From Alphaproteobacteria bacterium (GTDB taxonomy: Bacteria > Pseudomonadota > Alphaproteobacteria > SP197): a stretch of 64,000 nucleotides of DNA. Below, one piece after another: positions 32,173 to 35,129 of this stretch. A model generated the notes under the pieces. The model was not told the DNA's origin, did no database searches, and saw only the letters and a program-made list of their open reading frames with translations. The position numbers and the translations under genes were made by a program. The stretch spans positions 128,001 through 192,000 of the forward strand of contig OZ219747.1 in assembly GCA_964291265.2 (NCBI GenBank). The letters run 5' to 3'. Positions within the stretch are counted from its first letter, which is position 1. Each line of letters starts with the position of its first letter.

Positions 32173-32339
32173 TCTTTCAATCACCCACGCGTGTATAGGG
32201 ATGTTACTCCCGCCTTCTCTCACCGAGTGCTTCGCGCCGCCTTCTTGCGCCAAGTGCGGTAACTGCCCAGGTCTGATTTTGCCGAGTCCTGACGGGAGGT
32301 GGATTGATGGCTGCGGTCTGATGACGCCGAGGAGGGATG

Positions 32340-33882
32340 TCAGAAGCGCAGTTTCGGGATCAGCTATATGGGATCGGGGTGGGCCAGTGTTTCGAGGACA
32401 TTCCAGCCCTGTTTTCGGGCGATGGAGATGACGGATCGCAGCTTGGCGAAGTCGCTCAGCGCCCTGCATGGATCGGAAGCCGCCCGAGATTTTCTGGCGC
32501 AGCTTGCTCATGCGGAAGTCTTGCTCGGCCTGGTTGTTGGAGAACGGGACTTGCGGGTTGGTGAGGAAGCGCAGGCAGCCGTCCTTGTGCTTCTGAAGGC
32601 GGAGCGCGAGGTTGTGGCCGATGCGGCGTTTTCGTCGTCCGCGCTTTCCGGGCTGGAGCGGCGGCCTCTGTTCGTGGGAAGCGATGGCCTGCTCGAGGAT
32701 CCTGTCCCAGGCTTGCGAGATGCGGGCGAGGAGTGAAGCGGGGATGTCGCGGTCGTTCTTGCGGGCGAAGCGGGCGGCTCTGTTGGCACGGATGAGGAGC
32801 CTGTGCATGGCGGTGGCCCAGTCTTCCTTCTCGATCTCGATCAGAGCCTGGAGTTCGCGCGAGCGATGGGCGTTGCAGGCACCGTGGCGCACGCCCTCGA
32901 GAGTGAAGTAAGTGGCCAAGTCGTCATGGATGACGATGCCGTTGAGCGTCTCGTCGATGTGTTTGCGCCCGGTGGCGAGGCGCAGGATGGTGAGCAAGGG
33001 GGTGCACAGCACATGGAGCCAGTGGGTCTGGCCGTTGATGCGGATACCGGTCTCGTCGAGGTGTTTGACCGGGGCTTGGGTGCGGATGATCTCTGCGACA
33101 TGATCGAGGAAGCTCTCGAAGCGCCGGGCGGTGCGCCTGCCCATGGCGGCGATGGTGGCGGTTGAGATCCTGACCGCGAAGAGGTCGCTCATGACCTCGG
33201 CGACGCGCTTCTCGGGAATGAACTGGGCGTGCAACAGGTAGGTCACCCAGGCGGTGATGCGCGGCCCGTACTGGACCGGGGCGCTCACGCCGTGCGGGAA
33301 GGCGGCTGTTGTCACAGCGCCGCAGGCGGCGCAGAGACAGCGATGGGCGCGATGTTCGGTGACCTCGAGGGGCTGCGGCTCGGGCATGTCGAAGACCTGC
33401 CGACAGACGGGTTCTGCGTGACGGTCATCATCCGACAGCGGCGCGCCGCAGCCCTTACAGGCAGACGGAGCATGATCGACGACGTGGTCCGGGTTCTCGG
33501 CCTGCTTCAGGGTGACTCCCTCGTGGCCGCGCTGACCGCCACTGGGCCTGTCGGACTTGCCGCGCTGGCTCCGGGTGCGCTTCTGTCGGTTTCCGCTCTT
33601 CTTCTTCGGACCGTCGCTGGCCGGTGGCTTGGAGCTGGTGGAGCTGTCGAGCGCGGCGCTGCGCTCGAGTGCATCAATCCGTTCGCGCAAGCCGGTGTTC
33701 TCCCGCTCCAGCGCCTCGATCTCCCCGACCAGCGCCTCACTCAGGCGCAACATCCCCTGGCCCCAATCCCGGAGGGCCTTGACGGCAGTCACGGCGAAGG
33801 AGTGTGGACTGAACAGGTCCTGAAGGCACGTGAAAGCCTCGTCATGGGCGGCGATGTCCTCGCGCCAGCGCGAGACGGTCAC
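32340..33882 (-). pseudogene. IS66 TnpC (single-ORF type) with a late frameshift
   Basis: STSSKPPASD, CKGCG, HLDETG, CNAH, NNQAEQDFR, KISGGFRS; frameshift near 32455 before FAKLRSVISIARKQG. Confidence 0.82.
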
Positions 33883-34547
33883 GAACCCTCCCCGGCCTCG
33901 ACGGCCATGATCGCCGCCAGCACGGCCAGACGTTCCCCCGGCGGCATGGCCTCGTAGCGCCGCCCCCAGTTGGCCGCCTTGCGCTTGATGCACTGGCGGG
34001 CGGTGAAGTTCCGCCCCGCGTAGCGCGACCAGTGCACCCGGTCGGGAGCAAAGTTGAACCATACCACCTCGGTCCGCACCTGGGCCTGGGTCGTCACCTG
34101 TAGCGCCACCCGGCGCCAGCCCGCCAGAAGATCGTCATAGAGCGCAGACGGGTGGCCCGAGACCATCACCTGACAGGGCAGGCCCTTGAGCAGTTCAAGG
34201 AGCGCAACATGGTCCGCCTCCTCGTACTCGAAGCGGTAGCGCTGCGACGAACGCCGCGTCGCGTGCAGATAGGGCGGATCGCTGTAGACCAGCTCCGGAC
34301 CCAGAAACGGGAACGAAGCCAGGAAGGAGTGAGCACAGCCGTGCACCAACTCCACCGGATAAGCGCACTCAAAGGCCTCAAGCGCACGCTCATCACGGTC
34401 AATCCCGATCGAGCGCTCCGACGCAGCTTTGCGCTTCATCAGCGCTCCGCCCCCCAGATGGCTCTCAATGTAGACAGAGTGCGGCGGCATCAGCGCAATC
34501 AGCGCCTGGCACAAACCCGGCGTCGCCTTCGATCCGAAGTACCCCAA
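33879..34547 (-). CDS. Compact D12-class (Dam-like) N6-adenine DNA methyltransferase
   Basis: GYFGSK, MPPHSVYIESHLGGGA (motif I-like), YSDPPY (motif IV), TEVVWFNF; TTG start with a G-rich RBS; 222 aa. Confidence 0.85.
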   Translation of the reverse strand: MGYFGSKATPGLCQALIALMPPHSVYIESHLGGGALMKRKAASERSIGIDRDERALEAFECAYPVELVHGCAHSFLASFPFLGPELVYSDPPYLHATRRSSQRYRFEYEEADHVALLELLKGLPCQVMVSGHPSALYDDLLAGWRRVALQVTTQAQVRTEVVWFNFAPDRVHWSRYAGRNFTARQCIKRKAANWGRRYEAMPPGERLAVLAAIMAVEAGEGS

Positions 34548-35129
34548 CGGCCGCCCCCCTCATGACAGAGGGCAACTCATAGGCTCACCGGCCTAGTAAG
34601 TCAAGACGCGCAGAATCAACAAACCGACGACACCAAAACCGCACCCAACGCAACCAACGTCAACACAGACTCAGACCTGGCGGGGTACCTGGGCAGTTAC
34701 CATCTGTTTGGGAAAGTTACTCGGCCATCGACGTCATCCTGCGACGGCTGCGCTCAGCCCGCCTCGCCGATATCCATCTCGGCGAGGCGGCGGAAAAGGT
34801 CGAGAACGTCATCGCGCGGGCGATGAACCTCGGCGCCGGGTCCAGACATGGCGCCTTGCGCTCCCTTCCGGCCACGTGCCGCCATTGGCTTCGGCAACTG
34901 CCCAAGGGGAGGGCAATCTGCGGCACCCGTCTTGCGGACCGTGACCGGCAGGCCCCCCATGAGCCTGAAGTCCTGCCATGCAAGCCCTCGGGCGGCGCGC
35001 CCGGGCCAGGCACCGGCAGTGACCGCTCCCATGCAGCAACGCCACTGTCGGTGGGGTGGCGCACGGAACGGCGGTTGCGTTGCAAGCACCGCGAAGGCCG
35101 GTCATCCGGAAAGGTCAAACCGGGAAAGA

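Follow-up and report, generated by a model that had tools for sequence, protein, structure and literature searches.

Why should an insertion sequence with a single transposase gene carry, directly in front of it, a gene for a protein that resembles a DNA adenine methyltransferase? The question is raised by an element lying within a 64,000-nucleotide stretch of an alphaproteobacterial contig (the window, to which coordinates without a prefix refer). Comparison of the element with its copies, its homologues and a plasmid protein studied by experiment indicates that the gene and the promoter in front of it are likely to be a self-repressing brake on the transposase rather than a genome-wide DNA methylase.

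With a length of 2,442 bp, the element belongs to the IS66 insertion sequences, and its two ends are perfect 14-bp inverted repeats of the IS66 type; terminal inverted repeats of this family start with GTAA, as they do here, and the repeat upstream of the methyltransferase-like gene was taken as the left one (Table 1). Both the sequence and the other copies confirm the two-gene arrangement that an earlier note on this DNA had described, with its perfect repeats and its overlap between the first gene and the tnpC GTG. The tnpC product is an IS66-type DDE transposase: the window copy scores 250.6 against NF033517 (cutoff 180) and also matches PF03050 and PF13005, and an intact copy (L002) scores 280.3. 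Intact copies specify 513 aa; in the window copy, a +1 frameshift near 32454-32458 disrupts the frame. The tnpA and tnpB genes found upstream of tnpC in classical IS66 elements are absent, and the promoter and the methyltransferase-like gene fill this space. Thus, tnpC is the single transposition ORF, as in the ISBst12 group, with which the element shares TnpC, GTAA ends, an 8-bp duplication and the lack of tnpA and tnpB (ISDge4, excerpted text of PMC12898284). However, ISBst12-group elements are described there as single-ORF elements, whereas this one adds an upstream gene and a promoter with a palindrome. The earlier note was also right that there is no restriction partner: neither room nor an ORF for a partner endonuclease exists between the element ends, and tnpC has no match in PADLOC.

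Table 1. Features of the IS66 element and its flank (positions in the window).
Feature	Position	Strand	Basis
Left terminal inverted repeat, 14 bp, GTAA end	34687..34700	-	perfect match to 32259-32272; same in other copies
Predicted promoter of the cassette, -35-like hexamer TTGACT	34599..34604	-	family-wide TTGAC upstream
TAG-N10-CTA palindrome, operator-like, in the promoter spacer and overlapping the -10 position	34580..34595	.	family conservation
-10-like hexamer TATGAG (family consensus TATGCT)	34576..34581	-	position from family alignment
Upf31-like gene, 222 aa	33879..34547	-	
DPPY (motif IV) codons	34269..34280	-	near-invariant in homologues
GTGA stop-start overlap of the Upf31-like gene and the tnpC GTG	33879..33882	-	sequence
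IS66 tnpC: DUF6444, zf-IS66, DDE_Tnp_IS66	32340..33882	-	profile matches and alignment of 8 copies
Right terminal inverted repeat	32259..32272	+	paired with 34687..34700
Flank beyond the right end: three truncated repeated sequences that abut one another	31724..32258	.	genome matches of each piece

The window copy has no 8-bp target duplication, which is present at four of the eight copies of its family (family A below), probably because its flank has been rearranged. The three pieces beside the right end (31724-32059, 32060-32173 and 32174-32258) each have many matches in the genome, and each stops at the next junction; successive adjacent deletions are suggested. Elsewhere in the window, a second IS66 tnpC (27818-31160, plus strand), with no methyltransferase-like gene near it, is split at 28486-30072 by the reverse transcriptase of a group II intron on the minus strand. 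In a 679-aa ORF at 35130-37169, RTX calcium-binding nonapeptide repeats were matched over 16 stretches.

The encoded protein consists of a Dam-fold SAM domain (residues ~5-167) and a basic, two-helix C-terminal part (~173-220), whose helices fall at 181-200 and 203-219 in the predicted structure of the monomer. It has the SAM-binding fold, motif I and the DPPY of the Dam family. However, the target-recognition domain between motifs II and III/IV is missing: only 62 residues separate motif I from DPPY, and in this respect the earlier description of a Dam-like DPPY protein with little room for such a domain holds. A total of 143 residues align to Dam 11-270, and the protein differs from E. coli Dam (2ore), DpnM (2dpm) and T4 Dam (1q0s) both in this missing domain and in its extra C-terminal helices. 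It lies below the Pfam and NCBIfam cut-offs and matches methyltransferase profiles of PHROGs and PADLOC. All of the 88 non-redundant homologues have the DPPY motif, as do 142 of the 150 more distant representatives. Pairwise dN/dS values (median 0.21, maximum 0.51, from 1,178 non-independent pairs) indicate that the gene is under purifying selection inside insertion sequences, and it is more conserved than tnpC of the same elements (92 vs 84%; 85 vs 72-79%). Among distant relatives, four (P0134, P0142, P0176 and P0217) have low-complexity inserts at the position of the missing target-recognition domain or at the C-terminus, which might be translated operator repeats.

The known protein that it resembles is Upf31 of the IncP-1beta plasmids pBP136, R751 and pB3, which has the same combination of Dam-like and C-terminal helical domains and an inverted repeat with a 10-bp spacer over a TTGACA promoter. 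The window protein is 44% identical to Upf31.0 of pB3 over 224 aa (E 4e-65, pairwise), and the alignment is full-length, C-terminal part included, as expected of a member of the Upf31 family. According to the main text of Elg et al. (10.1101/2024.02.05.579024, PMC11997246), Upf31 represses its own promoter about 50-fold (from 4.76 to 0.09 XylE units); the main text adds that repression needs the C-terminal domain (residues 173-225) and that the inverted repeat is the evident operator (PMC11997246). The preprint predicts a dimer formed through the C-terminal domain (10.1101/2024.02.05.579024). Unlike Dam, Upf31 gave no GATC methylation, nor any SMRT signal; for the SMRT test, E. coli ER2796 had upf31 on an expression vector (PMC11997246). 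The terms IS66 and insertion sequence have no match in the preprint or in the main text of PMC11997246. The element gene differs from its plasmid relative in lying inside the ends of an insertion sequence, before a transposase, and in having no KorB partner in the element.

The region upstream of the gene is conserved in a manner expected of an operator. Of 112 distinct upstream regions, 106 have TTGAC at 25-95 bp before the gene, and TAG-N10-CTA was found in 99 of 109 such regions of close homologues, while TAG and CTA at spacers of 6-9 or 11-14 occur in at most one region each. The palindrome keeps a fixed register to the -35 hexamer (96 of 105), and its right half runs into the -10-like TATGCT of the family. 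Conservation of its TAG, at promoter spacer positions 10-12, reaches 97-98%, and the matching CTA is spaced from it by exactly 10 bp; because sigma-70 does not read these positions, this conservation supports the operator reading. There is one palindrome per element in 90 of the 94 complete elements, and 28 of the 48 TAG-N10-CTA sites in the whole genome stand at the promoter position of these elements; no operator copies are present at the element ends. A strict sigma-70 scan of the window copy returned no site, its -10 being poor. The gap between the gene and tnpC is most often the 4-bp overlap (-4, 13 of 59 loci) and ranges from -29 to +135; since it varies, and tnpC has its own purine-rich ribosome site immediately upstream of the GTG, coupling is not strict.

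As in the Upf31 family, the inverted repeat thus lies over the gene's own promoter, with a TAG half-site rather than the TCG of the plasmids. The promoter geometry of upf31.0 on pB3 is the same, with CATCG half-sites; the element has one site, whereas the IncP-1beta plasmids have clustered repeats (14 CATCG-N10-CGATG sites in the 56 kb of pB3 vs 21 in MG1655). CATCG half-sites were found in all four homologues examined that have a PGGK N-terminus, whereas the insertion sequence clade has TAG; three phage homologues have different half-sites, and four of the eight plasmid homologues examined have no palindrome with a 10-bp spacer within 160 bp upstream. In this small sample (L006, L202, L203 and L207 vs L007, L204, L208 and L209 and vs L008, L210 and L211), the half-site seems to track the subfamily: CATCG with PGGK, ATAG with most GSK/GAK proteins, and ACNG-like with P2-like phages.

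Such a palindrome, conserved down to its spacer, points to a site that is recognised in a sequence-specific manner, and this bears on two readings in which the protein methylates DNA. One, close to the relaxed-specificity or anti-restriction methylase of the earlier note, is that broad methylation keeps restriction enzymes from cutting the element or its circular intermediates. The missing target-recognition domain, the occurrence of the family on mobile elements and the PHROGs and PADLOC matches agree with it, yet broad methylation would have shown in the SMRT test of Upf31, the closest relative that has been tested, and none did; in the main text, Upf31 is an autorepressor with neither Dam activity nor a SMRT signal (PMC11997246). 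Given also the specificity of the palindrome, such protection is highly improbable. In the other reading, which is unlikely but less easily dismissed, the protein is an active and very site-specific adenine methyltransferase, whose dimer would methylate adenines in its own bipartite operator; the methylation state of the operator (e.g., hemimethylation after replication), more than its occupancy, would then switch the tnpC promoter. Host Dam methylation controls IS10 and IS50 and provides a precedent. The protein retains motif I, DPPY and the Dam fold intact, with hardly any variation among homologues, and both half-sites carry conserved adenines. With as few matching sites as MG1655 contains, the SMRT motif finder may have had little power, and judging from the methods of PMC11997246 the test was apparently run without the plasmid repeats. 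Against this, the excerpted text of Elg et al. makes repression depend on the C-terminal domain and mentions no catalytic mutant (PMC11997246).

Further copies of the element lie in the same genome. Family A comprises eight near-full copies, two of them interrupted. Matching 8-9-bp target duplications flank four; in all four the first gene stops after codon 133, and in three tnpC is intact. Two of the copies (611342 and 1235822) are identical in sequence, truncated gene included, and have different target duplications. Recent transposition of these related copies has thus occurred. Three copies, that of the window included, have an intact first gene, a broken tnpC and no duplication, and in the eighth both genes are broken. 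The contrast between an intact methyltransferase-like frame and a frameshifted tnpC, which the earlier note had described, is therefore correct for the window copy and misleading as a clue, because other copies reverse it; the pattern is a chance feature of the copy in the window. Family B, a second IS66 family of about 2.46-2.49 kb, has the same layout and different ends; its first gene is 62-63% identical to that of family A, and its tnpC only about 34%. It has 15 end pairs with 8-bp duplications, and 12 of its 20 copies with a found start encode the full 224-aa protein, the rest being shorter or otherwise disrupted. The start of tnpC abuts the 3' end of the first gene in all cases (9/9 in family A, 16/16 in family B). 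Two miniature derivatives with both family-A ends lie at G000:C2:517829-517960 and 1456114-1456457, and a miniature-like form joining 32303 to 34629 occurs in contigs of runs X1 and X3. In addition, a 3.5-kb stretch recurs at 100% identity near both contig starts (G000:C1:367-3866; C2:272-3771 and 9301-12800), possibly through assembly duplication.

The earlier note had placed the gene in the position of tnpA and tnpB and suggested that the transposase might direct it. If the protein were a partner of TnpC that replaces TnpA/TnpB, or a marker of ends or targets, its position before tnpC and the 4-bp overlap would be readily understood. However, two complete IS701 elements (L081 and L082), with their own ends and 5-bp duplications, also contain the promoter and the gene, and in genome G005 a 3,631-bp IS66 element has the cassette before a classical TnpC in addition to tnpA and tnpB; the four copies that were compared are flanked by target duplications and agree at 99.97% or more. 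The order in this element (L195:1487-5117) is the Upf31-like gene, tnpC and a small ORF, followed by tnpB and tnpA on the opposite strand. The cassette therefore neither replaces TnpA/TnpB nor needs one particular transposase. Moreover, in a 66-row tree the Upf31-like proteins are not sorted by transposase type, and AU tests on a 44-row subset, picked after the first tree and with groups defined from transposase clusters, rejected a single clade for the B-type, IS701 and all IS66 proteins (p values of 6e-7, 5e-4 and 3e-4). Thus, the cassette has been exchanged between transposase families. Together with an IS4-like transposase behind one cassette, the lack of operator copies at the element ends and the transposition of identical truncated-gene copies to different targets, these observations leave a TnpC partner or marker scarcely credible.

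The question of a one-off capture, which the earlier note proposed to settle by scoring the neighbourhood of homologues, can be answered. Relatives of the protein number 2,753 at 90% clustering, with 1,225 representatives at E 1e-30; context was scanned for the 80 best of 578 confirmed matches and the 80 best of 571, and the counts thus describe the close clade (at least 65% identity). Among these best matches are 76 genome loci from 16 assemblies, mostly of Alphaproteobacteria and also of Dehalococcoidia, Ca. Binatia and Ca. Tectimicrobiota; an IS66 tnpC lies directly downstream in 73, and of the three other loci, one is interrupted and two are followed by an IS701 transposase. The best metagenome matches agree: an IS66 tnpC is found in 63 of 80 loci, and 7 others end within 300 bp; the remaining 10 comprise three IS66 tnpC starts (L090 and L091 by eye, L121 by Pfam), two IS701-like genes, one IS4-like DDE gene, one unclassified ORF and three loci with nothing recognisable or outside the scan. 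At L152:1050-2648, a 532-aa ORF without a family match above cut-off stands directly behind the cassette and may be an unclassified transposase. The two IS66 ends could be located at 59 genome and 35 metagenome loci, with 8-bp duplications at 43 of the 59 and at 6 of 31 metagenome loci. Far from a single capture, the gene is a stable part of insertion sequences, always in the same position and on the same strand. The family is unevenly distributed, with 12 of 40 relatives having it and, at 1e-30, 2 of 400 across the phylum. Distant relatives at 44-54% identity belong to plasmid and P2-like phage backbones; of the loci opened (8 plasmid, from 200 records, and 3 phage, from 95), none has the gene annotated inside an insertion sequence, although in one an IS1380 gene follows at a distance of 200 bp.

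These backbone relatives are what would be expected if the cassette were a self-regulating hitch-hiker, from which the transposases behind it gain a promoter and for which repression of tnpC is a by-product without benefit. The loss of the full-length gene in five of the eight family-A copies, including all four with duplications, fits the same idea, as does the transposition of ISBst12-group elements that have no Upf31-like gene (ISDge4, excerpted text of PMC12898284). On the other hand, purifying selection inside the elements, conservation above that of tnpC, the constant position and strand and the intact gene in 12 of 20 family-B copies make it very unlikely. Transporter insertion sequences (tIS) likewise hold a non-transposase gene within their ends, and their passengers include a methyltransferase in an IS1380-family element (excerpted text of PMC11891212); such passengers have, by definition, no role in transposition (excerpted text of PMC9330008). 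The Upf31-like gene differs in its fixed position, its own operator and its recurrence in IS66 and IS701, and in that it probably controls the transposase.

It is reasonable to suppose that, in these tnpC-only IS66 elements, the Upf31-like gene and the palindrome are an autorepressor cassette that throttles transcription of the transposase; this we consider probable, the autorepression being carried over by analogy from a plasmid protein with less than half of its residues identical. A dimer of the protein would bind TAG-N10-CTA and block the predicted promoter around it, lowering transcription of its own gene and of tnpC, which would be co-transcribed behind it. In a new host, a burst of transposase might be expected until the repressor builds up, and copies would then repress each other in trans, more copies giving tighter repression; this could even extend across families A and B, both of which have the TAG-N10-CTA core. 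Among the roles that the earlier note listed, control of transposition is thus the likeliest, and anti-restriction is not supported. Truncated-gene copies with fresh duplications fit a brake rather than a required factor, although intact copies might supply the protein to them, in which case they would not prove the gene dispensable; the loss of the gene from mobile family-A copies fits either escape from the brake or reliance on other copies. Retention of DPPY counts against the autorepressor reading, as a pure repressor would not need it. So do the poor -10 of the window copy, the loose coupling of the gene to tnpC, and the plasmid and phage homologues that lack the spaced palindrome or have other half-sites. 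A bolder and rather doubtful proposal is that the dimeric Dam-fold protein both reads and writes its bipartite site with the 10-bp spacer, repressing and methylating its own promoter; it would then be a portable epigenetic switch, repeatedly captured by IS66 and IS701 transposases, with which they would set the timing of transposition and gauge copy number across different families.

The element is a combination of two known things, IS66 and Upf31-like control, and is widespread within one clade; a description of an Upf31-like gene in IS66 or IS701 was not found in the literature searched, outside which most subscription journals fall. Most insertion sequences are not known to carry a repressor gene of their own. 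If the autorepressor reading is true, a promoter, operator and repressor that can be swapped between unrelated transposases would be a new means of self- and mutual limitation for simple elements, and a two-gene element with a single operator offers a minimal test system for Upf31. Genes annotated as 'DNA adenine methylase' next to transposases may in many cases encode regulators, and a reader-writer switch, if true, would account for the inverted-repeat clusters of IncP-1beta plasmids.
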